A DNA stretch of 64,000 nt from Opitutales bacterium (GCA_007130045.1 SLTG01000088.1:24647-88646), one strand, 5' to 3'. Positions 1 to 31,379 are shown, counted from the first letter of the stretch. A program made the numbers and translations. The notes: a model not told the origin generated them from the letters alone.

Positions 1-3000
1 CTGGGCGGAGTCGGGATGGCGGGCTGCAGGCGTCCGGAATCGCACATCCTTCCGTACGCGCAACAGCCGGAGCGGATCATTCCCGGACGACCCCTCTATT
101 ATGCCACTTCAATGCCTCTGCGCGGTGCGGCGGTTCCGCTGCTGGTCGAAACGCATCAGGCACGCCCGACGAAGATCGAGGGAAACCCGACCTACGGCCC
201 GAACGGCGGAAAGTCGGATCTGCCAACCCAGGCCTCCGTCCTCAATCTCTACGATCCCGACCGAGGGCGGCGCCACGAACGCGGGGATTCGCCGCTCTCC
301 GGCGATGAGCTCGCCGCTCTGCTTGCCGAGGTGGGGGAGAGGTACGCCGGCAACGGGGGTGCGGGACTTGCGTTTCTCGCCGAAACCTCGAGCTCCCCGA
401 CCCGCCGCGCCCTCGTCTCCGAGCTGAAGGAGCGCTTTCCGGAGGCAATCTGGTCCGAATACGAGCCGGTGGACGAGTCTCTCGCGGAAAAGGCGGCGAC
501 CCGTCTCCTGGGCGAGCCGGCCCGTCCCTACTATCATCCGGGAAGGGCGTCGCGTATCCTGGCGCTGGATTCGGATTTCCTCCAGGAGGGCGACGGACAC
601 ATCTATTATTCGCTTTCATTCGCAAACGGACGCCGCGTCGAGAATCCCGGCGATCCGATGAACCGCCTTTACGCCGTCGAGAGCACTTACTCGGTGACCG
701 GCGGCATGGCCGACCACCGCCTGCGACTGGCGACCTCGAAGGTTCCGGCGTTCACTTGCCGCCTGGCCGCCGGCATCCTGTCGGAGCTCGGCGAGGAGTC
801 CGGCCTGGTTTCGGCACTTGAATCCGCATCGAACGGTCTGGACGTCGATGACGCCTGGATTGACGCCTGTGCGAAAGATCTTGTCGAGAACGGTTCGGAA
901 TCCCTCGTGGTCGCCGGGACTCATCTCCCCGAGGAAATTCAGGCCCTCGTTCTCTTCCTGAACCAGATCCTGGGCGCCGTCGGCACGACCGTCGAGTTTC
1001 TGGCAGTGGACGAGAAACAGGGGCGGCCGATCGGAGACCTGGCCGAAGCGATCCGCGCGGGCGACGTTCAGACGCTTTTCGTGCTGGGCGGAAATCCGGC
1101 CTTTAACGCTCCGGCGGATCTGGATTGGAGGGAACTCCAGGACAGTGTGGACGAAGTGATCCGGTACGGGTACTACCGCGACGAGACTTCGGAGGGCGCC
1201 GACGCGTTTATCAACGCTTCACATTATCTGGAATCGTGGGGCGACGCCCGTGCCCCTGACGGGTCGGTGCTGCCGGTGCAGCCGATGATCCTCCCGCTTT
1301 TTCAGAGCGTCACCGAACTCGAGCTCCTCGCGAGGATACTCGGCAAGGAGAACACGGAGCCGTACGACCTGGTTTATGAGACGGTGACCGGAATGAAACC
1401 GGACGACGGCGCGGAGAGGGTGTTCCGCCGTTTTCTTCACGACGGTGTGCTTGCGGACAGCGCGTATTCCGTGGCAAACGGGGAGATCTTCGCGGACGAC
1501 GTCGGGGAGCTGATCGCCGGAGCGGGGATTTCCGTCTCGAGCCTTTCGGTTGATAATCTCGAGGTTCGTCTGGTTCGTGACGCGCGGACGGACGATGGCC
1601 GGTTCGCCAACAACGGCTGGCTGCAGGAATGTCCCGACCCGATCACGAAACTCGCCTGGGACAACGCGATCATGATCAGTCCGCGTCTGGGACGGGAGCT
1701 CGACATTATTCCCGGGGTTCCGGCAATGGGAATCGTGCGACGCAACCCGAATCGGATCCGTTTGGGACGCCAGGTCGCCCCGATTGCCGAGATCGAGCTC
1801 AACGGGCGCAGGATCAAAGGCCCCGTTCACGTTCAGCCGGGACTTGCCGACTATTCGGTGATCGTGCCGGTCGGGTACGGAAGAGAATTCGAAGGCAGAA
1901 TCTGCAAGGGAGTCGGGTTTAACGCGTATCCGCTGAAATCGACCGGGCGGTCTTTCCACGCAACCGGTGTTTCGATCATGATTACCGGCGAGACCCCCAT
2001 GCAGCTCGCCAACGTCCAGGAGCACTGGTCGATGGAGGGCCGGGCGATAATTCGCGAGGCGAACAAGGAATACTACGATGAGAACCCGGACTTCGCCGCG
2101 CGGATGGGAATGGAGTCCCACGCGCCGCCGAACCTCGGGCCCGATCCGCAGGTCCGCGCAATGCCCCTCCACGAGCGCAGCCGGGCGACGCCGCGCGGGT
2201 ACTCGCTCTACGAGCATCCCGAGTTCACCGGAATCCACCAGTGGGGCATGACGATCGACATGAACACCTGCATCGGCTGCAACGCCTGTGTTGTGGCTTG
2301 TCAGAGCGAGAACAATATTCCGATCGTCGGGAAGGACCAGGTGTTGCGCGGGCGCGAGATGCACTGGATTCGGATCGACCGGTATTTTTCGAGCGGCGAA
2401 ACCCGCGACAACGAGGTGCCGGACGATCCCCAGGTTTCGCTACAGCCGATGCTCTGCCAGCACTGCGAATTGGCGCCGTGCGAAACGGTTTGCCCTGTCA
2501 ATGCGACCGTTCACGACGACGAGGGACTCAATGTGATGGCGTACAACCGGTGCATCGGCACCCGCTACTGCGCCAACAACTGTCCCTACAAGGTTCGCCG
2601 ATTCAATTTCTTCGACTGGAACGAGCGGCGGATCGGCAAATTTTATCACGGCCCGTTGGGTCCGAAAGGGATGGACGAACTGCACAAGATGCAGAAGAAC
2701 CCGGATGTTACCGTGCGGATGCGGGGAGTGATGGAGAAATGCACCTTCTGCACGCAGCGAATCGAGGCCGCCAAAATCGAACAAAAGGTGAAAGCCGGTG
2801 CCACATCCGACGTGGAGGTTCCCGACGGGACGATCCAGACAGCCTGCCAGCAGGCCTGCCCGACCGACGCGATCGTGTTCGGAAACATCGCCGACCCGGA
2901 AAGCGAAGTTTCGAAGATGAAGGAACGCGACCGGGATTATTCGGTTCTCGGCTATTTGAACACGCGTCCGCGTGTCACATACCTGGCGAAGCTGCGCAAT

Positions 3001-3093
3001 CCGAATCCCGAGATGCCGGATTTCGGCGCGCGACCGTTGAGCGCCGCGGAGTATTATTCCCGGAACTATCCGAACGGGGGAGCTGAAGAATGA
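1..3093 (+). CDS. actB: Alternative complex III subunit ActB (molybdopterin-oxidoreductase-like domain fused to a 4Fe-4S ferredoxin domain); 5' end probably outside the window
   Basis: 1025-aa ORF (track 16..3093). The frame stays open back to nt 1. The C-terminal half carries the Cys clusters [51 protein letters not shown] and CTFCTQR...CPTDAI. It is followed by actC-F homologues. Confidence 0.85.
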
Positions 3094-4517
3094 TATCTCT
3101 CGACGATACGAAATCGGTCAACGAAAGCCTGATCAAAGAGGCGAAACCGGCGACGTTGCCACGGCGGAAGCTGGTGGAAAACGACCGGAGTTTCGATTGG
3201 ATCACCGAAAAGGTTTGCGGGATCGTCGAGGAAAAGACGCCCACCTGGTGGTGGGTCTGTTTCTTCATTTCCGGTTTCGTTTCCCTGTTCACCGTTGCCG
3301 GAACAATCTATCTGATTTCGACCGGGGTCGGAGTCTGGGGCCTCAACAATCCGGTCAACTGGGGCTGGGCGATCGTCAATTTCGTTTTTTGGATCGGCAT
3401 CGGTCACGCGGGAACCCTGATTTCGGCCATTCTCTGCCTGCTTAAACAGAACTGGCGAACCTCGATCAATCGCGCGGCGGAGGCTATGACGATCTTCGCG
3501 GTCGTCTGCGCGGGCATCTTTCCGCTCATTCACGTCGGTCGCGTCTGGTTTGCGTGGTGGCTTTTCCCGATCCCCAACGCCAACGTGATCTGGCCGCAGT
3601 TCCGGAGCCCATTGCTGTGGGACGTTTTTGCTGTTTCCACGTACGGAACCGTCTCGCTGCTCTTCTGGTACGTTGGGATGATTCCCGACCTCGCGACCCT
3701 GCGCGACCGGGCGAAGACCAGATTGAAACAACTGTTCTACGGCTTCTTCGCAATGGGGTGGCGCGGGTCGAATCGCCATTGGAGCAATTACGAGATGGCC
3801 TACCTGCTGCTGGCGGGGTTGGCGACGCCGCTCGTGCTTTCGGTGCACACCATCGTTTCATTCGACTTTGCCGTTTCGTTGATTCCCGGCTGGCACACGA
3901 CGATCTTCCCGCCGTATTTCGTGGCGGGCGCCATTTTCTCCGGCTTCGGGATGGTGCTGACGCTGATGCTGCCGTTGCGGTCCATCTACGGGCTGCACGA
4001 TCTGATCACGCAGTACCACATCGACTGTATGTGCAAGATCACTCTGGCCACAGGCAGCATGGTGGGATACGCCTATGCGATCGAGTTCTTTATCGCCTGG
4101 TACGGTGCGAACGATTTCGAGAGCTTCGCCTTTATCAATCGAGCTTTCGGGCCCTACGCATGGGCGTACTGGATCATGATCACGTGTAACGTCATTTCGC
4201 CCCAGCTCTTCTGGTTCCGGAAGGTCAGGGAGAATCCGGCGTTCGTGTGGATCGTCTGTATCTTTGTGAATATCGGCATGTGGTTCGAACGGTTCGTCAT
4301 CGTGGTGACGTCGCTTTCACGCGACTTCCTGCCCACAAGCTGGGGTTACTATTCGCCGACCCTAACGGACATTATGACCTACGTGGGGACATTCGGTATC
4401 TTCACATTCCTGTTCCTGTTATTCCTGCGATTTCTGCCGCTCATGGCGATGGCGGAAATCAAGGCGGTTACGCCGCAAGCCAATCCGCACCATAACTCGG
4501 AAGGAGGGAGTCACTGA
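3090..4517 (+). CDS. actC: Alternative complex III subunit ActC (NrfD/PsrC-like polytopic quinol-interacting membrane protein)
   Basis: 475-aa highly hydrophobic ORF with multiple TM helices. ATGA overlap with actB. Position is as in act operons. Confidence 0.85.
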
Positions 4518-4519
4518 CC

Positions 4520-5059
4520 ATGAGCGACGAAGGAAAAACCTACGGGATGATGGCGAGCTTCAAAACGACCGGCGCGGTGATGCAGGCCGCCGAGAAAGTG
4601 CGCGACGAAGGATTCAAGCACTGGGACGTGATCAGTCCGTTCCCTATCCACGGAATGGACGGCGCGATGGGGATCACTCGATCCAAAGTCCCCATCTTCA
4701 CTCTGATCGGCGGCGCGACCGGTTTCTTCGGAGGGAACCTGATGATCTGGTACATGAACGCCTACGACTACGCGATCCCCGTCGGAGGCAAGCCGATGTT
4801 CAGCCCGATGTACGCGTTTCCGGTTTCATACGAGCTGACCATCCTGCTTGCCGCGTTCGGAGCGATCATCGGCATGCTCCTGATGAACCGCCTTCCCATG
4901 CACTACCATCCCGCAATGAAGCACGATGCGGTGGACCGTGCGTCCAACGACCGGTTTTTTATCGTCATCGAATCCTCGGACCCGAGGTTTGACGAAAAGA
5001 CGACGACTGCCCTGCTCGAAAGGATAGGCGGGAGCGACGTGACGAAAATCGAAGACTGA
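4520..5059 (+). CDS. actD: Alternative complex III subunit ActD (DUF3341-type)
   Basis: 179 aa with a soluble N-terminus followed by two TM helices (FTLIGGATGFFGG..., ELTILLAAFGAIIGMLL). There is a 2-nt gap after actC. Confidence 0.8.
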   Translation: MSDEGKTYGMMASFKTTGAVMQAAEKVRDEGFKHWDVISPFPIHGMDGAMGITRSKVPIFTLIGGATGFFGGNLMIWYMNAYDYAIPVGGKPMFSPMYAFPVSYELTILLAAFGAIIGMLLMNRLPMHYHPAMKHDAVDRASNDRFFIVIESSDPRFDEKTTTALLERIGGSDVTKIED

Positions 5060-5061
5060 AC

Positions 5062-5691
5062 ATGCGTATTTTCTTCGCCATATTTGCCTTTTCCCTGCTG
5101 GCCCTGCTTTCGATTCTGGGGTTCCGGGGAGCGACCTCCGACCGGCCGCCGATCGAGATCTTTCCCGATATGGTTCGCCAGTCGAAGTACAAGGCGCAAT
5201 CCCATAGCGAGTTTTTTGAAGACGGCCGGACCGACCGGCCCGTTCCGCCTGGAACGGTGCATCGCCAGTACGACAACCCGCAAGAGAGCGAACGGCTGGA
5301 TGACGATCACTTCAATACCGGAAGGGTGAACGGCGACTACGCCGAGGGATTCCCGATGGTTGTGACCCGCGAGACGATGGAGCGCGGACGTGACCGGTAC
5401 AGGATCTTCTGCGGAAGCTGTCACGGCGGGATCGGCGACGGGCAGGGAATCACGTTCGAATATGGAATGGTCACGGTACCGGATTTTCACGCGGAACGCT
5501 TTTACGATATGGCCGAAGGGGAGATTTTTGAAACGATCACCGAGGGCAGGGGATTGATGGGGTCTTACAAGGATAAACTCAGTGTCGAGGACCGCTGGGC
5601 CGTGATCGCTTACGTTCGCGCCCTTCAACGTGCCCGCGTGGGAACCGAAGCCGACGTGCCGGAGGCCGAAAGAGAGAGGCTTGGACTATGA
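5062..5691 (+). CDS. actE: Alternative complex III subunit ActE (membrane-anchored monoheme cytochrome c)
   Basis: 209 aa with an N-terminal hydrophobic anchor, a single CGSCHG heme-c motif and a downstream Met-containing segment (GRGLMGSY). Confidence 0.8.
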   Translation: MRIFFAIFAFSLLALLSILGFRGATSDRPPIEIFPDMVRQSKYKAQSHSEFFEDGRTDRPVPPGTVHRQYDNPQESERLDDDHFNTGRVNGDYAEGFPMVVTRETMERGRDRYRIFCGSCHGGIGDGQGITFEYGMVTVPDFHAERFYDMAEGEIFETITEGRGLMGSYKDKLSVEDRWAVIAYVRALQRARVGTEADVPEAERERLGL

Positions 5692-6953
5692 GCAATGCAA
5701 AATCAGCGGGAGCGACCGGCCCGGCCGGCGGAGCGGCGGCGAATGCGTGGATGTTTCGTGCGATGATCGTCGGCATCGTGGCTCTGGTTCTCACACTTGT
5801 CGGCCTTTTCACCGGAGATCCTGTCCGGGTCGGGCTCGGCACGCTGATCTCCGTGGTGTTCTGGCTTTCCATCGGCCTAGGAATGTGGTTTCTGATCATG
5901 TTGTTTTACTTGTTCGACGCGGGATGGGGAACCGTGGTGCGGCGTCCGATGGAGCACGCGACCGCAACGTTTCCTTGGATCGGGGCGGTGTTTTTCGTCC
6001 TGCTTTTCCACTCCCTCATGGCGGACGCCGAGGAGGGTGTCTGGAAATGGATGAATCCGGAAAATCCCGTCGTGATCGCCGGGGAACTCGCGACGGTCCA
6101 AGACGATGTTCTCTATCACCATAAGAGCGCATTCCTGAACAATGCTTTTTTCTTCGTCCGTTCGCTCATTTATTTCGGCATCTTTATCGGTATCGCTTCG
6201 ATCCTGCGCAATGCCTCGTTCAGGCAGGACAGTGACGGCGACGGTGCCTGGACCACGGTCTGCCGCAAATGGTCCGCGGGCGGGGTGATTCTCGGCGCGC
6301 TTGCCGTGACGTTCGCTTCACTGGACTGGATCATGACCCTGGAGTTTCACTGGTTTTCCACGATGTTCGGAGTCTGGTTCTTCTCGTCCGCGATGAGGGC
6401 CGCGTTGTCGGGAACGGTGATTGTCTGTTTGATCCTGGTTTACACCGGCGTGTTCAGGGGCGTGTTCAAGCAGGCGCATCTTTACGAGTTGGGACGGCTG
6501 ATGTTCGCGTTTACCGTCTTTTGGGCCTACATTGCCTTTTCACAGTACTTCCTGATCTTGAACGCGAACATTCCGGAGGTCACATACTGGTACGTCAACC
6601 GCGAACACGAGTACTGGTGGTGGGTCGGACTGGCTCTCCTGTTCGGTCACTTCTTCGTTCCCTTTATCTACCTTCTTTTTTACAGGAACAAGGTTCTCCC
6701 GGGACGAATGCTCTTTATTTCAGTATGGATTCTCGCGTTCCATTTGTTGGATCTTTACTTCAACATCCTTCCCTCCAAGCACGCGGAAACCGGACTGCCG
6801 TATTACAACTTCTCCGTCACCTTCTGGGATGTCACCGCGTTCGCCGGTGTTGGCGGGATTTGCGTCTGGGCCTTCATGAAAAGCTACGTCGGTCAAAAGG
6901 CCATTCCGGTGCGTGATCCACGCATCCTGGAATCCCTCAGCCATCATGAATAA
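5688..6953 (+). CDS. actF: Alternative complex III subunit ActF (second NrfD-like membrane subunit)
   Basis: 421-aa polytopic membrane ORF with a 4-nt overlap with actE. Its order in the operon fits actF. Confidence 0.8.
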   Translation: MSNAKSAGATGPAGGAAANAWMFRAMIVGIVALVLTLVGLFTGDPVRVGLGTLISVVFWLSIGLGMWFLIMLFYLFDAGWGTVVRRPMEHATATFPWIGAVFFVLLFHSLMADAEEGVWKWMNPENPVVIAGELATVQDDVLYHHKSAFLNNAFFFVRSLIYFGIFIGIASILRNASFRQDSDGDGAWTTVCRKWSAGGVILGALAVTFASLDWIMTLEFHWFSTMFGVWFFSSAMRAALSGTVIVCLILVYTGVFRGVFKQAHLYELGRLMFAFTVFWAYIAFSQYFLILNANIPEVTYWYVNREHEYWWWVGLALLFGHFFVPFIYLLFYRNKVLPGRMLFISVWILAFHLLDLYFNILPSKHAETGLPYYNFSVTFWDVTAFAGVGGICVWAFMKSYVGQKAIPVRDPRILESLSHHE

Positions 6954-7353
6954 CAAAGAACCCTCATTGCGAAACACTGTTTTATCGGCCGTCGCTGTCA
7001 TCGCCGGACTGGTCATCATGGTGATCGTCGCCGCGATTGTGTATCTTCCGGATCGTGCGGACACTGTCGCGCGGCCGGGGATGACCCCTGCGGAACGCAG
7101 GGAGCTGCTTCAGAAGAAGACGAGCCGCGAGGAAGAGGAACTCGGTCATTACGGATGGATCGACGAGGAGGCGGGACGCCTGCGCCTGCCGATCGATTTG
7201 GCCATGGACCTTGCCGTTTCGGAAATCGACCGGGAGGAATCGATCATCGTTCGCGAATTTGAAGAACCTGAAGAGGAGGAAGAGGATGACGGGCAGGACG
7301 AGTCCGACGAAGACGCGGAAGAGGAACCGGATAACAACGAGTTAGAGGGCTGA
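6946..7353 (+). CDS. Small single-pass membrane protein with a strongly acidic C-terminal tail (possible ACIII/oxidase accessory subunit)
   Basis: The ATG at 6946 overlaps the actF stop by 8 nt. One TM helix (VLSAVAVIAGLVIMVIVAAIVYL). The tail reads EFEEPEEEEEDDGQDESDEDAEEEPDNNELEG. No recognised family. Confidence 0.55.
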   Translation: MNNKEPSLRNTVLSAVAVIAGLVIMVIVAAIVYLPDRADTVARPGMTPAERRELLQKKTSREEEELGHYGWIDEEAGRLRLPIDLAMDLAVSEIDREESIIVREFEEPEEEEEDDGQDESDEDAEEEPDNNELEG

Positions 7354-7356
7354 TTG

Positions 7357-8844
7357 ATGAGCGATTCTTCTTCACACCCGGATTCAAGCACCAATCGCGG
7401 CGGCGCTACCGGCCTCCAACCGTTCGGCTTGCGGGCAATCGACACATCGATGCGCGTGCCGGCCGTCGTCTTTGGGGCAATGTCGGTTCTCTGGTTGTTT
7501 GTCGCCACGCTGTTTGCGCTGATTACTTCCTTCAAGCTGCACACACCTGGCTTTCTCGGTCAATGGGAATTGCTGACGTTCGGACGGGTTCAGCCCGCCT
7601 ATATGACGATGTTTCTTTACGGCTGGGCGACCAATGCGGGTTTTGGGGTTGCATTCTGGATCATGGCCCGCCTTTCCAGGAACACCCTTCAGGCCGGCGT
7701 CACACTTTATACCGCCGCGGCGTTTTGGAACGTCGGGGTCCTGGTTGCGATCTTCGGCATTCTGATCGGCCACTTGAATCCGCACAAATGGCTGGAGATG
7801 CCGGGTTATGCCGCCCCGCTTCTGTTCGTGGCGTTTGCGCTTATCGCGGTGTGGGCGGTGCTCACGTTCAGATTCCGCCGGTCCGATTATTCGTATGTGT
7901 CTCAGTGGTACCTCCTGGCGGCCCTTTTTTGGTTTCCCGCCATCTTCGGAATCGCCTGCCTGATGCTCGTTTACGCTCCCGCCCGCGGCGTCGTCCAGTC
8001 GGTCGTCGGTATGTGGTATGCCCACAACCTCTACGCGCTCTGGCTGACGCCGATCGGACTTGCGGCGGCGTACTATTTCATTCCCAAAATCCTGGGCAAG
8101 CCGGTACACAGTTACTATTTCGCCGCTATCGCGTTCTGGACCTACCTTGTTTTCGCCAGTTGGGCGGGAACGCAGCACCTCGCCGGCGGGCCGGTCCCGG
8201 CATGGATCATTTCCTCCGGGATTGTCGGGAGCCTTCTCACGCTCTTTCCGGTCGTCATCATCGGTATCAATCACCACGTCTCAATGGCGGGAAACTTCGG
8301 AAAGCTTCGCACGAGTCCCACCCTGCGGTTCGTGTATTTCGGGGCGGTCGCGTTCACATCCGTCAGCATTCTGACCGCGTTCACCGCCTTCAGAAGCGTC
8401 CGGGAGGTCGTCCAGTTCACGTATTTCATGGACGGCCAGATGCAGTGGGGAATCTATGCCTGGTTCACGATGGCGATGTTCGGCGCCCTTTATTACATCA
8501 TGCCGCGGGTGCTCAATCGCGAGTGGCCTTCGGCCATGCTGATCAGGCTGCATTTCTGGACGTGCGCGTCCGGAATCGTTTTGTACGTTTTGGCCATGTG
8601 TATCGGCGGATGGATACAGGGGATTCAGATCAACAACCCAGGCGCGTATCCGGATTTCGTCGATGTCGTCGGAAACACCATGCCATGGTTGGTCGCCGGA
8701 AGTCTGGCGGGGATTCTTCTTCTGCTTGGCCACGCCGCGTTCGCTATCCATTTCTTCTGGATTCTCCTTCGCCCGGAGATCCCGGATGAGAGCCGATCGA
8801 AGCTCTTTAAGGAGCCGAAACACATGAAGGTTGCAGTGAAATGA
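7357..8844 (+). CDS. Heme-copper oxidase superfamily, cbb3 CcoN-like subunit I with a degenerate heme/CuB ligand set
   Basis: About 495-aa 12-TM protein. Long ungapped similarity to CcoN blocks (FGR..P, WYAHN, YYFIPK..KPV.SY, WAG..HL, RF......F, GALYY..PRV..RE, HFW....G..LY). Four of the six canonical His ligand positions read Tyr or Gln (see findings). Confidence 0.8.
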   Translation: MSDSSSHPDSSTNRGGATGLQPFGLRAIDTSMRVPAVVFGAMSVLWLFVATLFALITSFKLHTPGFLGQWELLTFGRVQPAYMTMFLYGWATNAGFGVAFWIMARLSRNTLQAGVTLYTAAAFWNVGVLVAIFGILIGHLNPHKWLEMPGYAAPLLFVAFALIAVWAVLTFRFRRSDYSYVSQWYLLAALFWFPAIFGIACLMLVYAPARGVVQSVVGMWYAHNLYALWLTPIGLAAAYYFIPKILGKPVHSYYFAAIAFWTYLVFASWAGTQHLAGGPVPAWIISSGIVGSLLTLFPVVIIGINHHVSMAGNFGKLRTSPTLRFVYFGAVAFTSVSILTAFTAFRSVREVVQFTYFMDGQMQWGIYAWFTMAMFGALYYIMPRVLNREWPSAMLIRLHFWTCASGIVLYVLAMCIGGWIQGIQINNPGAYPDFVDVVGNTMPWLVAGSLAGILLLLGHAAFAIHFFWILLRPEIPDESRSKLFKEPKHMKVAVK

Positions 8845-9494
8845 ACAAACTGTCGGTCATCATTACAGGCATACTCGTTACCATTGCCTTTTCCTGGGCG
8901 GGACTCGTGCTTACGAGCCATGTTCAGTTGGGCGCGCTCGAGCACCACGTTGACGAACTGTCGGGTGATTCGTTTCCTCCGCCGCGGGCCGGGATCGCCC
9001 GGAGAGGCAAGAAGACCTACCAGGAACTCGGTTGCGTCGCCTGCCACACCCAGCAGGTCCGGCGGCCGCGTGACGAGGAGACCTGGCGCCTGCCTTACGG
9101 GTACGCGGGCGATATCGAGCGCGGATGGGGCGAACGCCAGTCGGTGGCCCGCGATTACATTCGCGACGAAGTTGTATTGCTGGGAACCCGGAGGGTGGGT
9201 CCGGACCTCATGACGGTTGGCGGCAGGGAGGACACCCGCGAGTGGCATCATCGCCATTTGTACGACCCGCGTATCAACACACCCGGCTCGACCATGCCGT
9301 CCTATTCTTTTCTGTATAAAACCCGGGCGGTGGACGACGATCCGTCTCCGCGAGCGCTCGACCTTCCCGAGGGATTTGGAGCGCCGGCAGGGTATGAAGT
9401 TCTTCCGACACCCCGCGCCGATGCGCTTGTCCAATATCTTTTGAGTTTGCGAATGGATTACGAATTGCCGGAGGTTCCCGCGGAAAATGAGTGA
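8841..9494 (+). CDS. ccoO: cbb3-type oxidase subunit II (CcoO)-like monoheme cytochrome c
   Basis: 217 aa with an N-terminal TM anchor and motifs CVACHTQQVR, GTRRVGPDL..VGGR, WHHRHLYDPR and STMPSY. ATGA overlap with the upstream gene. Confidence 0.8.
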   Translation: MNKLSVIITGILVTIAFSWAGLVLTSHVQLGALEHHVDELSGDSFPPPRAGIARRGKKTYQELGCVACHTQQVRRPRDEETWRLPYGYAGDIERGWGERQSVARDYIRDEVVLLGTRRVGPDLMTVGGREDTREWHHRHLYDPRINTPGSTMPSYSFLYKTRAVDDDPSPRALDLPEGFGAPAGYEVLPTPRADALVQYLLSLRMDYELPEVPAENE

Positions 9495-10149
9495 TAAAAA
9501 GAATCAAGAACCGGACGACCGGGAGTTTTGCCTGGAGCAGGAAACGACTTCGGATGAGAGCATCCAGGAGGTCCATGATTCGTTGATGCACCAGAAGGAA
9601 TCGACGCGTGCCGGGTTTCCCATCCTGCCCATCATGATGGTCTTATTCTTCAGTCTGCTGATGCTGGTGGGAGGAATCTACATGGCGGATTACGGAGTCC
9701 GGTTCAGTGCTTTGGCTTTCGATGAAACCCGCGACCCGGCAACTCGTGAGCCGGAGGAGCCTTCAAAGGTGGATATGGTAGCCATGGGCCAAGGGGTTTA
9801 CCGGACCTGCGCCGCCTGCCATGGACCCGAAGGCCAGGGGACTCCTGGAGTGTTTCCGCCCCTCGTGGACACTGATTGGGTGCTCGGATCCAAGGATCGG
9901 CTCATTCGCATTGTCCTTAACGGTCTCACCGGGCCGATCGAAGTCAGGGGTGAGACGTACAACATGCCCATGGGTGGTCTAGGCGGCGCTTTGAACGATC
10001 GGGAGGTCGCAGCGGTTTTGACCTACATTCGACAGGCATGGGGTAACGAGGCTTCCGAGGTCACTCTCGAGGAGGTTTCGGATGTCCGGAGCGAAGTGGG
10101 AACCCGCGGACCCTGGACCGCCGAAGAACTCGAGCAATTCGTCGATTGA
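9487..10149 (+). CDS. Membrane-anchored class I monoheme cytochrome c (occupies the CcoP position)
   Basis: 220 aa with one TM helix (FPILPIMMVLFFSLLMLVGGIYM), a single CAACHGPEGQG motif and the later MPMGG. 8-nt overlap with the ccoO-like gene. Confidence 0.75.
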   Translation: MSDKKNQEPDDREFCLEQETTSDESIQEVHDSLMHQKESTRAGFPILPIMMVLFFSLLMLVGGIYMADYGVRFSALAFDETRDPATREPEEPSKVDMVAMGQGVYRTCAACHGPEGQGTPGVFPPLVDTDWVLGSKDRLIRIVLNGLTGPIEVRGETYNMPMGGLGGALNDREVAAVLTYIRQAWGNEASEVTLEEVSDVRSEVGTRGPWTAEELEQFVD

Positions 10150-10340: not shown

Positions 10341-11141
10341 ATGCCTAAAATCGCATTCTTCGGGGCCGGACGAATGGCCACGGCAATGGTGCAGGGAATT
10401 CTCGCCCGAAAGGTCTGCGATCCTTCGGACATCATCTGCACGAGCGCGATGGACAACACGGCGGAAACACTGGCGCGGAAGTCGGGCATCAGTTTCAGCC
10501 TGCACCTTCCGGATCTCATGAAGGAGACCTCCATCGTGGTACTCGCCATGAAACCGCAGCAACTCGGGGAACTCCCCCGGGAGGTCGGCGCGGAGAGCGA
10601 GGGAAAACTCGTGATCTCGATTCTGGCGGGAAAACCGTTGAGCGCCCTCCGGGAAAAATTTCCCAGGGCCCGCAACATCGTACGTGTAATGCCCAATACT
10701 CCGGGCCAGATCGGCGCGGGGATCTCTGCGTTTTCCTCTCTGACTTCCTTGTCCGGCGAGGACCGCGAATCGGTGCGGGCTATCCTTGATTCTCTGGGAG
10801 AACGCCTTGAACTGCCCGAGGAGCAGCTCGACGCGGTGACCGGTCTCAGCGGCAGCGGACCGGCTTATGTGTTTGAGTTTATCGCGGGACTGACCGAGGC
10901 CGGCGTCGCCGCGGGACTCGATCATGGAGTTGCCGCGCGTCTAGCATTGAATACGGTGTGCGGCGCCGCGCGGCTCGTTTGGGAGACCGGCGAAAATCCC
11001 GAGGATCTTCGCGACATGGTGACTTCGCCGGGCGGTACGACTCTCGCCGGACTGGAGATGATGAAGGCGGGCGGTTTTCGCGACATCCTTCGCGACACCG
11101 TCCTTGCCGCGACGAAACGCTCAAAAGAACTCGCCCAATGA
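10341..11141 (+). CDS. proC: Pyrroline-5-carboxylate reductase
   Basis: 266 aa with an N-terminal Rossmann motif (KIAFFGAGRMATAMVQGIL), MPNTP and GSGPAYVF...MVTSPGGTT motifs. Confidence 0.9.
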   Translation: MPKIAFFGAGRMATAMVQGILARKVCDPSDIICTSAMDNTAETLARKSGISFSLHLPDLMKETSIVVLAMKPQQLGELPREVGAESEGKLVISILAGKPLSALREKFPRARNIVRVMPNTPGQIGAGISAFSSLTSLSGEDRESVRAILDSLGERLELPEEQLDAVTGLSGSGPAYVFEFIAGLTEAGVAAGLDHGVAARLALNTVCGAARLVWETGENPEDLRDMVTSPGGTTLAGLEMMKAGGFRDILRDTVLAATKRSKELAQ

Positions 11142-12136
11142 ACGCGCTTGAGAAAGGTGCCATCCTCGTGACAGGCGGGGCGGGGTTCATCGGGAGCGCG
11201 TTGGTCTGGCGGCTCAATGAAAAGGGCTTCGACGATATCGTCGTCAGCGACTTTCTCGGAACCGAAGAGAAGTGGAGGAACCTCGTTCCGCTGGCGTTCC
11301 GCGACTACATAGAAGCGGACGAGTTGATCGCGCGCCTGGAATCCGATCCCCCCTGCCTGGGAGAGATCGGGACGGTTTTGCACCTCGGGGCCTGCTCGGC
11401 CACGACCGAAACCGATGCCGGATACCTCGTTCGCAACAATTTCGAGTACACCAAGCGGCTGGCTTCGTGGGCGTTCGAACGCGGAGCACGGTTTATCTAC
11501 GCGTCGTCGGCCGCCACTTACGGAGACGGCGCCAATGGAATGGACGACGACATTGATTCCCTCCAAGCGCTGCGTCCCCTGAACATGTACGGCTATTCGA
11601 AGCATCTGTTCGACCTTTATGCGCGGCGAAAAGGGTGGTTCAAGAAGATCGTCGGATTGAAGTACTTCAATGTTTACGGTCCGAACGAAAACCACAAGGG
11701 CGACATGCGGAGCCTCGTCAATAAGGCATTCGGCCAGATCCTCGAAACAGGAAAAGTCCGGCTTTTCCGCAGTGATAAACCCGAGTACCGCGACGGCGAA
11801 CAGATGCGCGATTTCCTCTACGTCAAGGATGCCGTCGATATGACCCTCCATTTTGCAGAAAATACCTCGGAAGGGGGACTCTTCAATATCGGCTCCGGAG
11901 AAGCGAATACGTGGCTGACTCTCACCGAAGCGATCTTTGACGCGCTCGACCGCAAGCCGGACATCGAGTTCATCGACATGCCGGAGTCGATCCGCGAAAA
12001 GTACCAGTACCACACTTGCGCCGACATCACCCGGCTCCTGGAAACCGGCTACGACGGGAAATACCGGCCGCTTCCCGACGCCGTCGCCGATTACGTCCAA
12101 AACTACCTCGTCCCCGGCAGACACCTCGGCGAGTGA
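11138..12136 (+). CDS. hldD: ADP-L-glycero-D-manno-heptose 6-epimerase
   Basis: The internal ATG at 11138 (ATGA overlap with proC) gives 332 aa. Motifs VTGGAGFIGSALV, YASSAATYG, YGYSK and YFNVYGP..HKG closely parallel E. coli RfaD. The upstream part of track ORF 10958 is Arg-rich and overlaps proC. Confidence 0.9.
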   Translation: MNALEKGAILVTGGAGFIGSALVWRLNEKGFDDIVVSDFLGTEEKWRNLVPLAFRDYIEADELIARLESDPPCLGEIGTVLHLGACSATTETDAGYLVRNNFEYTKRLASWAFERGARFIYASSAATYGDGANGMDDDIDSLQALRPLNMYGYSKHLFDLYARRKGWFKKIVGLKYFNVYGPNENHKGDMRSLVNKAFGQILETGKVRLFRSDKPEYRDGEQMRDFLYVKDAVDMTLHFAENTSEGGLFNIGSGEANTWLTLTEAIFDALDRKPDIEFIDMPESIREKYQYHTCADITRLLETGYDGKYRPLPDAVADYVQNYLVPGRHLGE

Positions 12137-12141
12137 CGCTG

Positions 12142-12173
12142 GGAAGCGTCTGCACATGTCCTCCATAGCGCCG
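12142..12173. repeat. Right arm of the inverted repeat (partner at 10243-10275)
   Basis: ggaagcgtctgcacatgtcctccatagcgccg, the reverse complement of the 10243-10275 element apart from 3 transitions and 1 indel. Confidence 0.7.
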
Positions 12174-12192
12174 CCCCTCGCCCCCCGCCCCC

Positions 12193-12216
12193 CCTGTCCT
12201 CACGGACAGGCCTACC
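12193..12216 (+). repeat. REP-like hairpin element (7-bp stem, TCAC loop, CCTAC tail)
   Basis: cctgtcc-tcac-ggacagg-cctac. Same architecture as the elements at 29.5-29.7 kb and 34.9 kb but with a different, self-complementary stem sequence. Confidence 0.7.
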
Positions 12217-12220
12217 GAAA

Positions 12221-12281
12221 CACCGTCCCTCGCCCCCCGCCCCCCGCCCCACCTGCGCACCGTCCCACCGTCCCACCGTCC
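12221..12281. repeat. C-rich tract with octamer caccgtcc (one isolated copy plus three tandem copies)
   Basis: caccgtcc occurs at 12221 and three times in tandem at 12258-12281. It is embedded in C4-C7 runs spanning 12171-12290. Confidence 0.65.
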
Positions 12282-12401
12282 CGCCGCCGCGCCTCCGGAA
12301 TCCCCGGTTGACAGCAGCGGACGAGGGTATTCTTTGGACTTTATCGGCGGGTTCAAACATGCTTATACTTTCCCGCTGCCTGCAATACGCGTGATTTCAT
12401 T

Positions 12402-14369
12402 ATGGATGTACTCCTGATCGCACTTCTGGCCGGTATCGGATTCATCATAGCCTACCACACCTACGGGCGTTGGTTGGGACGGAAGATTTTCCGCCTTTCG
12501 GCCGAGGCCGTTTGTCCTTCGGAGAGCCAGAAGGACGACGTCGATTACGTCCCGACGAAAAAGTCGATCGTCTTCGGTCATCATTTCACCTCGATCGCGG
12601 CGACCGGCCCGATCGTCGGACCGGCGATCGCCGTGATCTGGGGTTGGCTCCCGGCCTTGCTCTGGGTGTTGCTCGGCTCGATATTCATCGGGGCCGTTCA
12701 TGACATGGGAAGCCTGGTGGTTTCCCTGCGCAACCGGGGACAGTCGGTGGGAGACGTCGCCGGACGGCTGCTCAATCAGCGCGTGCGCCTACTGTTCTTC
12801 GCCGTCCTCTTCCTCGCTCTGTCGATCATTATTGCGATCTTCGGACTCGTTATCGCCGCGGTTTTCCGGCAGTACCCGGCGGCGATCTTTCCCTGTCTCG
12901 TGCAGATTCCCATCGCGATTGGGGTGGGAATCCGGCTGCACCGGAAGGGCGTGGATCTGGTGATTCCTTCGATTCTGGCGGTGACGCTGATGTACTTTAC
13001 CGTGATCGTTGGTGACACCAATTTCAACTTCCCCTTCCTCGGCTGGGCGGCGGGCGAATGGGGACTACACGCGCTCAACCAGTGGTTTGCCAGTTGGCCG
13101 ACGATCGTCTGGGTGGCGGTGCTGCTCGGGTATTCCTACGTGGCGAGTGTGATTCCGGTGTGGGTGCTCCTGCAGCCGCGAGATTACATCAATGCGCTTC
13201 AACTGATTTCCGCGCTGACGCTGGTACTCGTCGGGCTCGTCGTCGCCTCGATGATCGGAGGAGCGCCGGCCGGCGAGGGAGCGGCGCGACAGTCGCTCGA
13301 ACTCAGCGCTCCGATGATCCAATGGAATCCGGCGGGCGCGCCGTTGATCGTTCCCTTCCTGTTCATCACGATCGCGTGCGGAGCGATTTCGGGTTTTCAT
13401 TGCCTGGTCAGTTCGGGGACGAGCAGCAAACAGCTTCGACGGGAAACCGATGCGCAATTTGTCGGTTACGGGGCGATGCTCACCGAAGGATTTCTGGCGA
13501 CGCTGGTAATCCTGGCGTGTGTCGCGGGCCTGGGGCTGGGCGTTGTGGCGGCGGACGGGACAGTACTGACCGGCTCGGAAGCATGGGCCTCGCGTTACGC
13601 GTCGTGGGGAGAAGCGGGCGGTCTGGCGGCGACTGTGGGCGCGTTCGTCGACGGAGCGGGTAATTTCCTGGCGGCTCTCGGGATTCCGGTCGCCGTGGCG
13701 GCGGCGCTGATGGGAGTGTTTGTCGCGTCGTTCGCGGCGACCACGCTCGATACCGCAACAAGGCTGCAGCGGTACGTGGTTCAGGAACTCGCGGCCGCCC
13801 TGAGCGGCAGGCGGCTTGGAGAAGTGGCTTCCGGGGCCGGTTCGGACTCCGGGGCGTTCGCCTCTTTTTTCCGGCTGGGCAACCGCTACACCGCGACCCT
13901 GGTCGCGGTCCTGGTCGCCGGCGCCCTGGCGTCGCTTCCGGGGCCGGGCGCCGAAGCCTGGACCCTGCAGACGGCGGGAGGCGGCGGATTGATCCTCTGG
14001 CCGATGTTCGGAGCGGTCAACCAGCTCATGGCCGGACTGGCTTTTCTCGTGATCGCATTCTGGCTGTGGAGGAGGGGAAGGCCGGTGTATTTTATCGTCA
14101 TCCCGCTGATATTCATGTTGATCGTGCCGGCCTGGGCGATGCTTTGGCAGGCGTTTGTCCAGGCGCCCGGCCAGGAGACGAGTTGGCTGCAGGACGGCAA
14201 TTGGATTCTCCTGTCAATCGGCGTCGCCACGGTAGTCCTCGAAATCTGGATGATCGTCGAGGCAATCAAGCTCTTTCCGCGCGTCAAAGGAGTCGTCGAA
14301 GACAACGCGCCGGATGCGATGCCCACGCAGAGCGCGTCCGGGCGCGTTCCTCGTCGGGCAGGAATATAG
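12402..14369 (+). CDS. cstA: Carbon starvation protein A family (peptide/pyruvate transporter)
   Basis: 655-aa polytopic membrane protein. Its N-terminus (MDVLLIALLAGIGFIIAYHTYGRWLG...HHFTSIAATGPIVGPAIAV.WGW.PA) is typical of CstA. Confidence 0.85.
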   Translation: MDVLLIALLAGIGFIIAYHTYGRWLGRKIFRLSAEAVCPSESQKDDVDYVPTKKSIVFGHHFTSIAATGPIVGPAIAVIWGWLPALLWVLLGSIFIGAVHDMGSLVVSLRNRGQSVGDVAGRLLNQRVRLLFFAVLFLALSIIIAIFGLVIAAVFRQYPAAIFPCLVQIPIAIGVGIRLHRKGVDLVIPSILAVTLMYFTVIVGDTNFNFPFLGWAAGEWGLHALNQWFASWPTIVWVAVLLGYSYVASVIPVWVLLQPRDYINALQLISALTLVLVGLVVASMIGGAPAGEGAARQSLELSAPMIQWNPAGAPLIVPFLFITIACGAISGFHCLVSSGTSSKQLRRETDAQFVGYGAMLTEGFLATLVILACVAGLGLGVVAADGTVLTGSEAWASRYASWGEAGGLAATVGAFVDGAGNFLAALGIPVAVAAALMGVFVASFAATTLDTATRLQRYVVQELAAALSGRRLGEVASGAGSDSGAFASFFRLGNRYTATLVAVLVAGALASLPGPGAEAWTLQTAGGGGLILWPMFGAVNQLMAGLAFLVIAFWLWRRGRPVYFIVIPLIFMLIVPAWAMLWQAFVQAPGQETSWLQDGNWILLSIGVATVVLEIWMIVEAIKLFPRVKGVVEDNAPDAMPTQSASGRVPRRAGI

Positions 14370-14482
14370 GCAGGACGGCAGAGGGATGTGTTGGTTGAAT
14401 CGTGTGGATCCGTGGCCGGTGTACCCAATCGTTTCAACCGCGTTCAAGCGATGAAACGTTGGACGGTAAATGTGGGGGATTT

Positions 14483-15403
14483 TCATCGGGGGCGGGGATT
14501 GTGGGCCACGGCATCGCCGCGGGCTTCGGGGCGGCGGCGCCACTCGGAAGGGGGCGTTCCGGTGATTCGGCGGAATTGCCGGGTGAAATAATTGCCGTCG
14601 CAGAAGCCGGTGCGGAGTCCGATTTCGCTTATGGAGAGATCGGTCCCGCGGAGGAGTCGCTGTGCCTGCCCGATGCGGTAGCGAATCAGGTAATCGAGCG
14701 GGGAGCTGCCGGTCACGGCACGGAATTTCCGCATTAGGGAGGAGCGGGACAGGCACCCGACCCGGCAGAGGGTGGCCACGTCCATCGGTTCGGAATGGTG
14801 CTGCTCGATGTAGCTCAATACCCGGCTCAGTTGTACCGCTCCATTGATGCGGGTTCTGGGTTTTTCACTGTAGCGGCGGGAGAGGAAACCGACCAGGCGC
14901 CGGAAATGGGAGATGGCGAGAAAGCGGTATCCTTCGCGGCGGGTTTCGAGTTCGCTCTCGATTTCGGTGACCATTTCATTTACCCCGGCAAATTCGTCGA
15001 GATCCAGTCGGAGGCGGTTGGGAAACGAACCGATCCGGCGCATGCGCGGCTCGATCTCGAACAGGGCGTAATATCCCGGAATCTCACCGAGATCCCAATC
15101 CACGAAGCCGAGTGCTTCCGCATCGAAGAGTACGTTGATGAGCGAGAGGTTCCGAACGTCCGGGTAGTGGTGGGTCATTGTCCCGGTAAGGACGAAGATC
15201 TCACCGGCGCGGATCTCGTAGTCGAATTCCCCGACCCGGTGGCGTCCCCACCCGTCCAGGATGATGACCAATTCCTGGAAATCGTGGCCGTGGGGATAAG
15301 GACTTGTCCTGTGGCTTTCGATCCGCCGGACGGAGAGGGGAATGCGGGGGTCCTCGAAGACCTGCTTGCGCCGAATTCTGTGGATGGAAGATGAGGAGGA
15401 CAT
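14483..15403 (-). CDS. AraC family transcriptional regulator (N-terminal cupin sensor, C-terminal double HTH)
   Basis: 306 aa. Cupin segment HGHDFQELVIILDGWG. C-terminus SSLMRKFRAVTGSSPLDYLIRYRIGQAQRLL...SISEIGLRTGFCDGNYFTRQFRRITGTPPSEWR. Confidence 0.9.
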   Translation of the reverse strand: MSSSSSIHRIRRKQVFEDPRIPLSVRRIESHRTSPYPHGHDFQELVIILDGWGRHRVGEFDYEIRAGEIFVLTGTMTHHYPDVRNLSLINVLFDAEALGFVDWDLGEIPGYYALFEIEPRMRRIGSFPNRLRLDLDEFAGVNEMVTEIESELETRREGYRFLAISHFRRLVGFLSRRYSEKPRTRINGAVQLSRVLSYIEQHHSEPMDVATLCRVGCLSRSSLMRKFRAVTGSSPLDYLIRYRIGQAQRLLRGTDLSISEIGLRTGFCDGNYFTRQFRRITGTPPSEWRRRPEARGDAVAHNPRPR

Positions 15404-31378: not shown

Positions 31379-31379
31379 T

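Follow-up and report, generated by a model that had tools for sequence, protein, structure and literature searches.

Loss of cofactor ligands and of ccoS in a CcoN-like protein encoded with alternative complex III in an Opitutales bacterium

The window, the whole 64,000-nucleotide (64-kb) stretch of DNA analysed here, comes from a member of the Opitutales (Verrucomicrobiota), probably one of soda-lake sediment. On its + strand it carries the nine 3′-most genes of a ten-gene cluster, actABCDEFG-ccoN-ccoO-cytochrome c (Table 1). The act genes specify alternative complex III (ACIII), a menaquinol:cytochrome c oxidoreductase. The original prediction placed actA directly 5′ of the window, and there it was found when the contig was extended (positions 1800-2453 of the 21.5-kb locus L001). 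Its product is a 217-aa pentahaem protein carrying five CxxCH motifs, and its 3′ end shares an ATGA with actB. Full-length actB spans 2450-5737 of that locus; its frame is already open at base 1 of the window, where the ATG at position 16 is internal codon 71 rather than a start.

ActB combines a molybdopterin-like B1 domain with a 4Fe-4S B2 domain and matches Fer4_7 and Fer4_11 in Pfam and the QrcC-like (2.7e-56) and QrcB-like (7e-7) models in NCBIfam. ActC is 72-95% identical across Opitutales loci, and ActF matches, by phmmer, the PDB chains 6f0k_F (1.7e-52), 6lod_F, 8k9e_F, and 6btm_F. The next gene had been described as encoding a small acidic protein; the gene is real and in place, but its kinship with ActG had been missed. 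A profile of 28 orthologues matches PDB chain 8k9e_G (“ActG”) with a modest score (E=1.9e-5), the match spanning a shared motif, YG..G.v.iPIdRAMdL. A homologue occupies the same position in most related loci (tblastn), whereas the acidic tail, in which 21 of 32 residues are D/E, is lineage-specific. The set of ACIII genes thus consists of ActA, ActB, the ActC/ActF pair, ActD, ActE, and the optional ActG.

Table 1. Features of the cluster in window coordinates, with the junction of each gene to the next
Feature	Position	Strand	Description	Junction with next gene
actB, 5′-truncated by window edge	1..3093	+	codons 66-1095 of 1095-aa ActB	ATGA overlap at 3090
actC, NrfD-type membrane subunit, quinol site	3090..4517	+	PF03916 NrfD, E=2.9e-23	2-nt gap, 4517/4520
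actD	4520..5059	+	PF11821 ActD, E=8.8e-63, full length	2-nt gap, 5059/5062
actE, monohaem cytochrome c	5062..5691	+	PF13442, PF00034; single CxxCH	ATGA overlap at 5688
ActE haem motif	5410-5424		CGSCH	
actF, second NrfD-like membrane subunit	5688..6953	+	phmmer matches to PDB ActF chains	8-nt overlap at 6946
actG homologue	6946..7353	+	N-terminal TM helix, conserved motif, acidic tail	3-nt gap, 7353/7357
ActG motif	7150-7212		YGWID..G.lRLPID.AMdL	
ActG acidic tail	7255-7350			
actG/ccoN junction, former ccoS position	7354..7356	+	canonical loci carry ccoS there	
ccoN*, cbb3 CcoN-fold protein lacking four of six metal ligands	7357..8844	+	PF00115, E=1.3e-48	ATGA overlap at 8841
ccoN* site codons	7600-7602; 8023-8025; 8155-8157; 8173-8178; 8437-8439; 8443-8445		Y82; H223; A267; Q273+H274; Q361; Q363	
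ccoO-like, monohaem cytochrome c subunit	8841..9494	+	PF02433 FixO	8-nt overlap at 9487
CcoO-like haem motif	9033-9047		CVACH	
CcoO-like axial ligand	9294-9296		Met152	
membrane-anchored monohaem cytochrome c, CcoP-like	9487..10149	+	PF00034, PF13442	
Haem motif of this cytochrome c	9808-9822		CAACH	

All eight junctions given in the original prediction were reproduced exactly from the sequence, and its wider observation is confirmed, the gene identities being backed by Pfam, NCBIfam, and PDB searches. The ten-gene operon that it described stands as a compact, single-strand array of conserved order, except that nine of the genes lie within the window and the tenth, actA, lies outside. An SD-like purine run is present 7-14 nt 5′ of most starts in the cluster. 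A consensus scan found no promoter-like site on the + strand, and terminator-like sites were no commoner than in shuffles (11 found versus 13.0 expected); the cluster is flanked by a 463-nt region 5′ of actA and by 191 nt 3′ of the cytochrome c gene. Across ~60-80 related loci the junction medians are -4, -1, +12, +4, -4, -8, -4, and -4 nt, with actG/ccoN as the exception, so the tightness is no chance trait of this contig. Given their shared strand, minimal gaps, and conserved order, and with no promoter or terminator recognised inside the cluster, the ten genes would be expected, judging from sequence, to be co-transcribed.

The central peculiarity of the cluster lies in the ccoN-like gene, whose product we call CcoN*. 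Six histidines are invariant in CcoN: two bind haem b, one binds haem b3, and three bind CuB. By residue alignment with Pseudomonas stutzeri 3MK7_A, H60, H257, H345, and H347 are replaced in CcoN* by Y82, Q273, Q361, and Q363, and the cross-link Tyr of TM7 (Y251), which is Tyr in canonical relatives, is replaced by A267. These replacements remove the cross-link Tyr and every histidine for haem b and haem b3, but just one of the three for CuB; the other two, H207 and H258 (H223 and H274 in CcoN*), are kept. The earlier description of the catalytic subunit as ligand-deficient is thus borne out residue by residue, with four of the six histidines gone. An assembly error is ruled out as the source of the loss, because the identical protein occurs on nine contigs from several assemblies. 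The fold nevertheless appears to be that of CcoN with its 12 TM helices: the AF2 model has a pLDDT of 83 and a pTM of 0.85, and its best Foldseek matches are all cbb3 CcoN (TM 0.84-0.91, 24-25% identity). CcoN* passes the broad Pfam COX1 model (166 versus 34.8) but, at 161.5 bits, falls far below the cut-off of 583 of the TIGR00780 ccoN model.

The two cytochrome genes that follow have kept their haem sites. The CcoO-like protein, encoded directly 3′ of ccoN, matches the PDB CcoO chains 8smr_F and 3mk7_B and has the CxxCH and axial Met of a monohaem CcoO, both of which are kept in 84 of 84 orthologues; the product of the third gene matches the TIGR00782 ccoP model weakly. No ccoQ was recognised at the window locus. 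In its fold, in the CxxCH and Met of CcoO, and in possessing a third, membrane-anchored c-type cytochrome, the module resembles the cbb3 CcoNOP of P. stutzeri (3MK7) and Rhodobacter capsulatus (6XKW), from which it differs at the five CcoN residues replaced and in that the third cytochrome is monohaem rather than dihaem. In the ligand-less lineages checked, the cytochrome c and ActE retain their CxxCH, and ActA all five copies. The sole exception found is locus L091, where the third gene lacks the motif, so a haem-c relay is not universally intact.

A further loss is apparent at the actG/ccoN junction. Canonical loci have there a gene for FixS/CcoS of 65-75 aa, and it is because ccoS sits there that their actG/ccoN gap has a median of 240 nt (458 nt in L006, the canonical locus nearest to the window). 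The gene (PF03597) is present in 73 of 73 canonical loci and in four of four loci changed only at CuB or Tyr, 77 of 77 loci with intact haem ligands. The same PF03597 search (positive control E=7e-44) failed to find it in any of the 12 haem-ligand-less loci, including anywhere in the 64-kb window or in locus L001, and the junction after its loss tightens to 3-47 nt. [quoted passage not shown] The joint loss of the haem ligands and of ccoS strengthens a structural reading of CcoN*. An analogue would be the R. capsulatus ccoS mutant, in which, as summarised in PMC8267372 from Koch 2000 and Kulajta 2006, cbb3 assembled without haem b, b3, or CuB. There, a cofactor-less CcoN with its cytochrome c subunits arose in the laboratory with ligands intact, whereas in the window ligands and ccoS appear to have been lost naturally and the protein to have persisted over a long divergence.

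Gene neighbourhoods in Verrucomicrobiota show how widely this arrangement recurs. The order actA-F, small gene, ccoN, ccoO, cytochrome c is conserved across the Opitutales, being the same in every long-enough locus of ~80. All six His and the Tyr are kept in 74 of 81 orthologues and 106 of 120 cluster representatives, and also in the closest canonical orthologue of the window protein. Grouped at 50% identity, ligand-less CcoN proteins, which the gene calls give as full length, fall into more than 130 clusters; at least one His is lost in 131 of 139 full-length representatives, and 70 of the 131 have none. All eight ligand-less representatives that were sampled lie 3′ of actE-actF and 5′ of FixO, and in seven of them the remaining ACIII genes are upstream as far as the contig reaches.

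The module could, in principle, be merely co-transcribed with the act genes, CcoN*, CcoO, and the cytochrome c forming a separate membrane cytochrome c complex with other partners. The eighth sampled representative, L093, would suit such independence, as its ligand-less module is preceded by just actE/actF-like genes without actA-D, as would L056, where no ACIII, ccoO, or cytochrome c gene could be detected near a ccoS-ccoN paralogue. Yet adjacency to act genes holds in essentially all loci, down to ~63% ActC identity, the actG junction is 3-47 nt wherever ccoS was lost, and both structurally examined cases of ACIII with an adjacent oxidase are supercomplexes (PMC5928083). We thus regard a separate complex as improbable, and the gene arrangement suggests a physical association of the CcoN* module with ACIII.

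Selection bears on whether CcoN* does anything at all. Compared with L006, the ACIII subunits of the window are 74-93% identical and CcoN is 59% identical; against the outgroup L038, CcoN identity is 50% for the window and 71% for L006, whereas the ActB, ActC, and ActF distances are equal. The ligand loss would thus appear independent and recent in the window clade, which comprises the window, L005/P0002, and L085/P0003, all three with ligand-less ccoN. The genes ccoN, ccoO, and cytochrome c evolve faster in the window lineage (ccoN/actF dN ratio ~1.5 versus 0.6 for a canonical pair), a relaxation of constraint that fits slow decay too. The module might then be a dying relic, its oxidase and ccoS inactivated once respiring oxygen had lost its use in anoxic sediment, and the remaining genes functionless but not yet decayed. 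The absence of ccoS, the CxxCH lost in L091, and a habitat that, from record names, is probably anoxic soda-lake sediment would all agree with this. But dN/dS (NG86) among the three ligand-less ccoN genes is 0.11-0.16 over a dS of 1.3-1.4 since ligand loss, rough values because dS is saturated (>1). Moreover, ORFs are intact in the window clade and in the eight sampled representatives, and in the wider set of clusters the sequences are full length as called; overlapping start and stop codons are maintained; the CcoO haem site is invariant; and fold-determining residues are conserved, W220 at 100%. A relic is, on this evidence, unlikely. The loss of ligands and of the cofactor-insertion gene under persisting selection makes CcoN* most likely a non-catalytic scaffold, and its annotation as an oxidase is most likely wrong.

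The original prediction had offered, besides a structural role, proton conduction or a different cofactor; its structural option is supported by selection, recurrence, ccoS loss, and the retained haem-c sites, whereas the other two fare less well because the ligand-less family conserves neither the proton-channel residues nor any replacement ligands. A residual metal or proton function of some kind is possible, as the window protein retains a pair of CuB histidines along with polar H251, S252, Y253, H306, and H307. If these polar residues, which lie on the cytoplasmic side and reach 90% conservation or more among canonical relatives, formed a proton (or Na+) pathway, ACIII turnover might drive additional ion translocation through the former oxidase subunit. 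Older ligand-less lineages do not conserve them, however (H251 31%, H307 30%, H306 replaced by L). S240, reportedly a channel residue in P. stutzeri (Buschmann 2010), was mapped by residue alignment to 3MK7_A; the window protein has Ala at the equivalent position, as do 84% of ligand-less proteins. Nor is any means known by which such a pathway could be gated in the absence of a redox centre. Energy conservation by ACIII is debated (PMC5928083) and the organism seems haloalkaliphilic (from the acidic ActG tail and record names), both of which leave room for ion conduction; even so, we consider it very unlikely.

Alternatively, Y82, Q273, Q361, and Q363, together with H223 and H274, could bind haem or metal non-canonically or perform other chemistry, W220 also surviving in the window protein. 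Tyr can ligate haem iron. Such repurposing of the heme-copper oxidase (HCO) scaffold has occurred repeatedly in NOR families, and gNOR, in which Asp replaces one active-site His, is thought to be still catalytic (Murali et al. 2024, PMC11214002), although in the window family up to all six His are gone. Even the three closest relatives do not share the same replacements (82 Y/T/Y; 273 Q/H/H; 274 H/H/Y; 361 Q/Q/L), and family-wide the ligand sites hold A, F, Q, S, G, L, P, or R, no one set of ligands recurring. The absence of ccoS likewise speaks against haem b or Cu insertion, and a new site of this kind seems highly improbable.

For the scaffold reading, we propose the following course. In most relatives the cluster, ccoS included, encodes ACIII joined to a complete C-family (cbb3-type) oxygen reductase, which would together make up a chain from quinol to O2 that is self-contained. 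The window lineage has had its oxidase disabled, the CcoN ligands being lost and ccoS being gone from between actG and ccoN, where the 3-nt junction is left. Apo-CcoN has nevertheless stayed under purifying selection, as part of a module with CcoO and the anchored cytochrome c, whose c-type haems are retained, and most likely serves as a non-redox 12-helix membrane scaffold placing these cytochromes beside the periplasmic ActA/ActE haems. Menaquinol electrons would leave ACIII by a two-haem c-type relay toward a terminal oxidase or reductase encoded elsewhere; none adjoins the window operon. Taken whole, this account seems to us somewhat better than an even bet; co-transcription, the association with ACIII, the electron path, and the final acceptor are its inferred parts. 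The interpretation in the original prediction is supported overall, each part that could be checked having held. Conservation in the ligand-less family falls mostly on G, P, and W and is not biased to the periplasmic face (25 periplasmic versus 26 cytoplasmic), so that a conserved surface for CcoO docking is not directly indicated.

Among described arrangements the nearest is that of Opitutaceae and verrucomicrobial methanotrophs, within the same phylum, in which a C-type (cbb3) oxidase comes after the act cluster (Refojo et al. 2010, as cited by Schmitz et al. 2021, PMC8498564; PMC6688271) and act genes adjoin ccoN/ccoO as in the window. The canonical relatives (74 of 81 loci) have exactly this arrangement; in those accounts CcoN is treated as a working oxidase, whereas the window CcoN lacks four of six ligands and the Tyr, and ccoS is absent. 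The adjacency of ACIII and a C-type oxidase in Opitutaceae is thus already published; what looks new is the ligand and ccoS state of CcoN, a literature search having found no paper mentioning CcoN ligand loss or ccoS absence in this arrangement. A precedent for cbb3 c-haem subunits feeding acceptors other than CcoN may be seen in Neisseria gonorrhoeae, whose third CcoP haem, as relayed in PMC8552683, diverts electrons to nitrite reductase; there the oxidase is active and the branch optional, whereas in the window the branch would be the sole route. The supercomplexes that ACIII forms with caa3/aa3 oxidases in Rhodothermus marinus and Flavobacterium johnsoniae (PMC5928083; Sun et al. 2018) likewise have actABCDEF(G) followed by oxidase genes, and the ActF and ActG of the window match PDB chains of such complexes. 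They transfer electrons directly from haem c to the oxidase without a soluble carrier (PMC5928083); in them ACIII is paired with an A-family oxidase that is active and has a CuA subunit, whereas the partner in the window would be a C-family module with a cofactor-less catalytic subunit. In one ligand-less locus, L088, both occur in series, a genuine A-family oxidase (CoxII, CoxI, CtaA, CtaB) lying directly 3′ of the ligand-less module.

The CcoN-like protein encoded in the window is, as had been predicted from the sequence, ligand-deficient. In its alignment to P. stutzeri CcoN (3MK7, whose residue numbers we use here), H60, H257, H345, H347 and the cross-link tyrosine Y251 are replaced by Y82, Q273, Q361, Q363 and A267, respectively. 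H207 and H258 are retained, and there is no further histidine in TM2 or TM10. On this alignment, canonical ligation of either haem b or haem b3 is impossible, and the CuB site has lost one ligand together with the cross-link partner. The fold itself is predicted to be intact: the AF2 model has a pLDDT of 83 and a pTM of 0.85, and its top Foldseek matches are all cbb3 CcoN (TM 0.84-0.91). A new cofactor site in CcoN seems quite improbable.

The gene lies within a tightly packed putative operon whose eight junctions, as first described, are all borne out by ORF listing and direct inspection. The unit had been counted as ten genes; the window itself holds nine, and the tenth, actA, lies upstream, where the original prediction had placed it. 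On longer contigs actA encodes 217 aa with five CxxCH motifs and overlaps actB by an ATGA. Nine contigs, from several assemblies, encode the identical CcoN-like protein, and the longest contigs among them supplied this upstream sequence. The same contigs give a full-length ActB of 1095 aa; within the window its frame is open from the first base, the ATG at 16 being an internal codon. The 463 nt 5' of actA contain a lone 56-aa ORF without a Pfam match, and divergent genes follow. This interval has no FNR/ANR box (TTGAT-N4-ATCAA, up to two mismatches), and the total count of such boxes in L001, the locus carrying this interval, is not above chance. On the 3' side, a gap of 191 nt separates the cytochrome c gene from proC. 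A consensus scan of the operon found no promoter-like sites on the + strand and no more terminator-like sites than expected from shuffled sequence.

Gene identities (table) come from Pfam, NCBIfam and PDB-sequence searches. The "small acidic protein" matched nothing in Pfam or NCBIfam; a profile built from 28 orthologues matches ActG of PDB 8K9E (E=1.9e-5), the two have a YG..G.V.lPIdRAMeL motif in common, and the protein is on these grounds an ActG homologue. Its acidic C-terminal extension, with 21 D/E in the last 32 residues, is restricted to the window clade and the related loci L006 and L038, most orthologues stopping soon after the RAMeL motif. The extension could reflect a halophilic lifestyle, or growth of the gene into what was once intergenic sequence.

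Features of the operon, its surroundings and related loci (junctions in nt; negative values are overlaps)
Feature	Sequence	Position	Strand	Basis or content	Junction to next gene
ActB	window		+	Fe-S domains	-4
ActC	window		+	NrfD	+2
ActD	window		+	PF11821, 8.8e-63	+2
ActE	window		+	monohaem cytochrome c	-4
ActF	window		+	matches ActF chains of 6F0K, 6LOD, 8K9E, 6BTM	-8
Small acidic protein (ActG)	window		+	profile match to ActG	+3
CcoN-like	window		+	COX1 family, closest to cbb3 CcoN	-4
CcoO-like	window		+	FixO/CcoO	-8
Cytochrome c, last gene	window		+	TM-anchored, monohaem	
ActG acidic extension	window	7255-7350	+		
ActG-CcoN junction	window	7353/7357	+		
Interval searched for FNR/ANR box	L001	1337-1799		upstream of actA	
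56-aa ORF	L001	1534-1704		about 940-1110 nt upstream of window base 1, between divergent 4HBT thioesterase gene and actA	
proC and following genes	window	10341-20694			
TraF_2-family and RadC/JAB genes	window	21354-23933	-		
hemA and CcsA-like genes	window	30296-32264	-		
Candidate ORF, 374 aa	window	27848-28972	+	no Pfam match, E<=1e-5	
Candidate ORF, 329 aa	window	45068-46057	+	no Pfam match, E<=1e-5	
Candidate ORF, 309 aa	window	47005-47934	-	no Pfam match, E<=1e-5	
Candidate ORF, 828 aa	window	48315-50801	+	no Pfam match, E<=1e-5	
ccoS-ccoN paralogue	L056	9785-11464			
Ligand-less module	L093	7298-13807			
Third gene (anchored cytochrome c)	L091	12120-12584			
Ligand-less module followed by A-family oxidase	L088	12925-18307			

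The arrangement is widespread. Relatives are encoded in at least 579 species genomes, nearly all of them Opitutales and allied Verrucomicrobiota, and among the 80 loci fetched every contig that is long enough has the order actA-B-C-D-E-F-G-ccoN-ccoO-cytochrome c, with junctions as tight as those of the window. The sole exception is L056, a ccoS-ccoN paralogue with H257->Q and Y251->F and no ACIII, ccoO or cytochrome c gene detectable nearby; its MAG (JAEWQP01) also holds a canonical ACIII-linked copy, L027.

Loss of ligands is likewise not confined to the window. We searched 1.84 billion cluster representatives exhaustively with HMMER and took the best 150 matches; of the 139 that were full-length, 131 are missing one or more of the six histidines, among them 70 that lack all six, and the Trp equivalent to W203 is invariant. 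Eight ligand-less representatives were examined for genomic context: all eight lie after actE-actF and before a FixO gene, and in seven the remaining ACIII genes are upstream, as far as the contig reaches. Against this background, it seems unlikely that the ligand-less genes form a functional module independent of ACIII. The eighth of the loci examined, L093, has just actE- and actF-like genes upstream and lacks actA-D. Around its ligand-less module lie a glycosyl hydrolase gene on the opposite strand, a gene of 259 aa where actG would be expected and, downstream, a single COX2 gene, and the cluster looks like a broken or rearranged variant.

Several ligand-less loci have canonical loci as their nearest neighbors by ActC similarity, and intermediates exist in which the CuB ligands or the tyrosine alone are altered. 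Several Chthoniobacterales/Terrimicrobiaceae-like sequences, with H207->R/N/S or Y251->S and intact haem ligands, may represent such an intermediate state. Canonical CcoN has 185 positions with at least 90% conservation; in the ligand-less set just 51 of them remain conserved, mostly Gly, Pro and Trp. These 51 show no clustering on the periplasmic, CcoO-facing side (25 versus 26 cytoplasmic), a result that speaks neither for nor against a docking surface there. Polar residues of the cytoplasmic side are lost, including the equivalent of S240, which is Ala in the window. This loss argues against a retained proton path, and residual ion conduction by CcoN thus seems to us a poor candidate for what the protein does now.

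The state of the ligands is matched by the presence of one neighboring gene. [quoted passage not shown] By tblastn, all 73 canonical loci and all four loci altered at CuB or Tyr alone have ccoS next to ccoN, and none of nine haem-ligand-less loci, including the window, does. It is also missing from three further ligand-less loci that were fetched to test this prediction (positive control, E=7e-44). The totals are thus 77/77 with intact haem ligands versus 0/12 without. It follows from this correlation that the 3-nt junction between actG and the ccoN-like gene, cited in the original prediction as evidence of tight coupling, is the site of ccoS loss, and that loss of the ligands was matched by loss of the machinery that loads them. 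In the passages of PMC8267372 that cite Koch 2000 and Kulajta 2006, the CcoNOQP complex assembles without CcoS, yet is inactive. Because this mutant complex still assembles, a CcoN without cofactors can hold its partner subunits.

It could be argued that the module is simply in slow decay and without function. The six histidines and the tyrosine are all present in 74/81 orthologues and 106/120 cluster representatives. The two closest relatives of the window (L005/P0002 and L085/P0003) are syntenic and 69-70% identical, and have in common with it the loss of H60, Y251, H345 and H347; in the next relative, L006, CcoN is fully canonical. Between the window and L006, the ACIII subunits are 74-93% identical and CcoN just 59%. 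Relative to the outgroup L038, CcoN of the window is 50% identical and that of L006 71%, whereas ActB, ActC and ActF are equidistant, which argues that CcoN evolved faster after the loss, CcoO and the cytochrome c less so. Among the three ligand-less ccoN genes dN/dS is 0.11-0.16, a rough value because dS (1.3-1.4) is saturated, but one far from neutrality. These comparisons indicate a derived and recent loss, through which selection has continued; the gene is neither an assembly artefact nor a fresh pseudogene. Functionless decay is in our judgment an improbable account. In a neighbor-joining tree of 346 CcoN sequences, the window clade falls together with a second ligand-less clade, typified by L037. 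We do not take this as evidence of common descent, because the linked ACIII places the window by canonical L006 (window ActC is 93% identical to that of L006 versus 78% to that of L037). Long-branch attraction is likely, and we therefore use the tree only for a rough estimate: at least about five changes of state.

The c-type haems have a different fate. CcoO has CxxCH and the axial Met in 84/84 orthologues, and in the ligand-less lineages checked the anchored cytochrome c and ActE still have their CxxCH, as does ActA, with five copies. The sole exception is L091, whose third gene, called as just 82 aa, lacks CxxCH, so that the relay is apparently not intact in every ligand-less lineage. In the reading that we find best supported, and regard as rather probable on sequence grounds, apo-CcoN is retained as a non-redox scaffold for a c-haem relay at the exit of ACIII. 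It would hold the CcoO-like and CcoP-like cytochromes in the membrane at this point, and electrons from menaquinol would pass through the relay to an acceptor encoded elsewhere. A passage of PMC8552683 on N. gonorrhoeae CcoP indicates that c-haem subunits of cbb3 can feed other reductases. No terminal reductase was found among the window genes scanned. In L088, a canonical A-family oxidase lies directly 3' of a ligand-less CcoN/CcoO/cytochrome c module, with CoxII carrying a CuA motif and CoxI carrying GHPEVY, HH and HFH, followed by CtaA and CtaB; judged by its motifs, a dead C-type module would here be sandwiched between ACIII and a live oxidase.

More broadly, a cbb3 oxidase may have been converted into permanent non-catalytic subunits of ACIII in many Verrucomicrobiota, several independent times and each time with loss of ccoS, a generalization to which we give slightly less than even credence. 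Cofactor-free CcoN would then be the scaffold, and CcoO and the anchored cytochrome c a built-in haem-c exit wire. If so, ACIII would have an architecture that has so far gone unrecognised, and CcoN would be the first catalytic subunit of a haem-copper oxidase known to have persisted as a pseudo-enzyme.

The operon type itself is already known, as ACIII has been described next to a C-type oxidase in Opitutaceae and in methanotrophs of the Verrucomicrobiota (a passage of PMC8498564, citing Refojo 2010; likewise PMC6688271), and oxidase genes following act genes are a general rule (PMC5928083). In the literature available to us we found nothing relevant on ligand-deficient CcoN with ACIII; what appears new is that a CcoN without cofactors is maintained by selection, that this state recurs and that it goes one-to-one with the loss of ccoS. 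According to a 2024 survey of the HCO superfamily (PMC11214002), the active-site histidines are completely conserved in every family but gNOR, against which CcoN homologues that lack all six and are still selected are unexpected. We also considered the HCO family that Murali et al. describe as putative N2O reductases and rejected it on its description, which is of a cNOR-related group with no mention of linkage to ACIII. Ligand-less CcoN lets one ask, in a natural setting, what role an oxidase scaffold plays once its metals are gone, and the series from intact, through CuB/Tyr lost with ccoS kept, to haem ligands and ccoS both lost displays stepwise formation of a pseudo-enzyme in a respiratory operon. 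Further, an ACIII with a hard-wired two-haem extension and no attached oxidase would be a clean model for studying the electron exit of ACIII and the role of ActE.

There is also practical weight for annotation because such genes are now read as evidence of microaerobic respiration. PGAP and IMG give ligand-less or CuB-less proteins (P0127, P0170, P0272 and others) the name "cbb3-type cytochrome c oxidase subunit I"; where named, the ligand-less ones come from MAGs of Opitutaceae or Verrucomicrobiae. For every ligand-less lineage among the MAGs of Opitutales and other Verrucomicrobiota, it would be wrong to claim microaerobic respiration from the genome. Live and dead copies can be told apart by two checks, namely whether the six histidines are in place and whether ccoS is present.

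Elsewhere in the window, the glutamyl-tRNA reductase gene hemA and a CcsA-like gene for cytochrome c assembly overlap. The organism keeps haem synthesis and the maturation of cytochrome c by System II, which fits the retention of c-type haems. Downstream of the operon lie proC and genes for an NAD-dependent epimerase, CstA, an AraC regulator, GFO/IDH/MocA oxidoreductases, a sugar-phosphate isomerase/epimerase-like protein, a sulfatase and a sulfotransferase, the repertoire of a polysaccharide degrader typical of Opitutales. Farther on, a gene for a TraF_2-family outer-membrane-like protein (559 aa) adjoins one for a RadC/JAB-domain protein, a pair unrelated to respiration.
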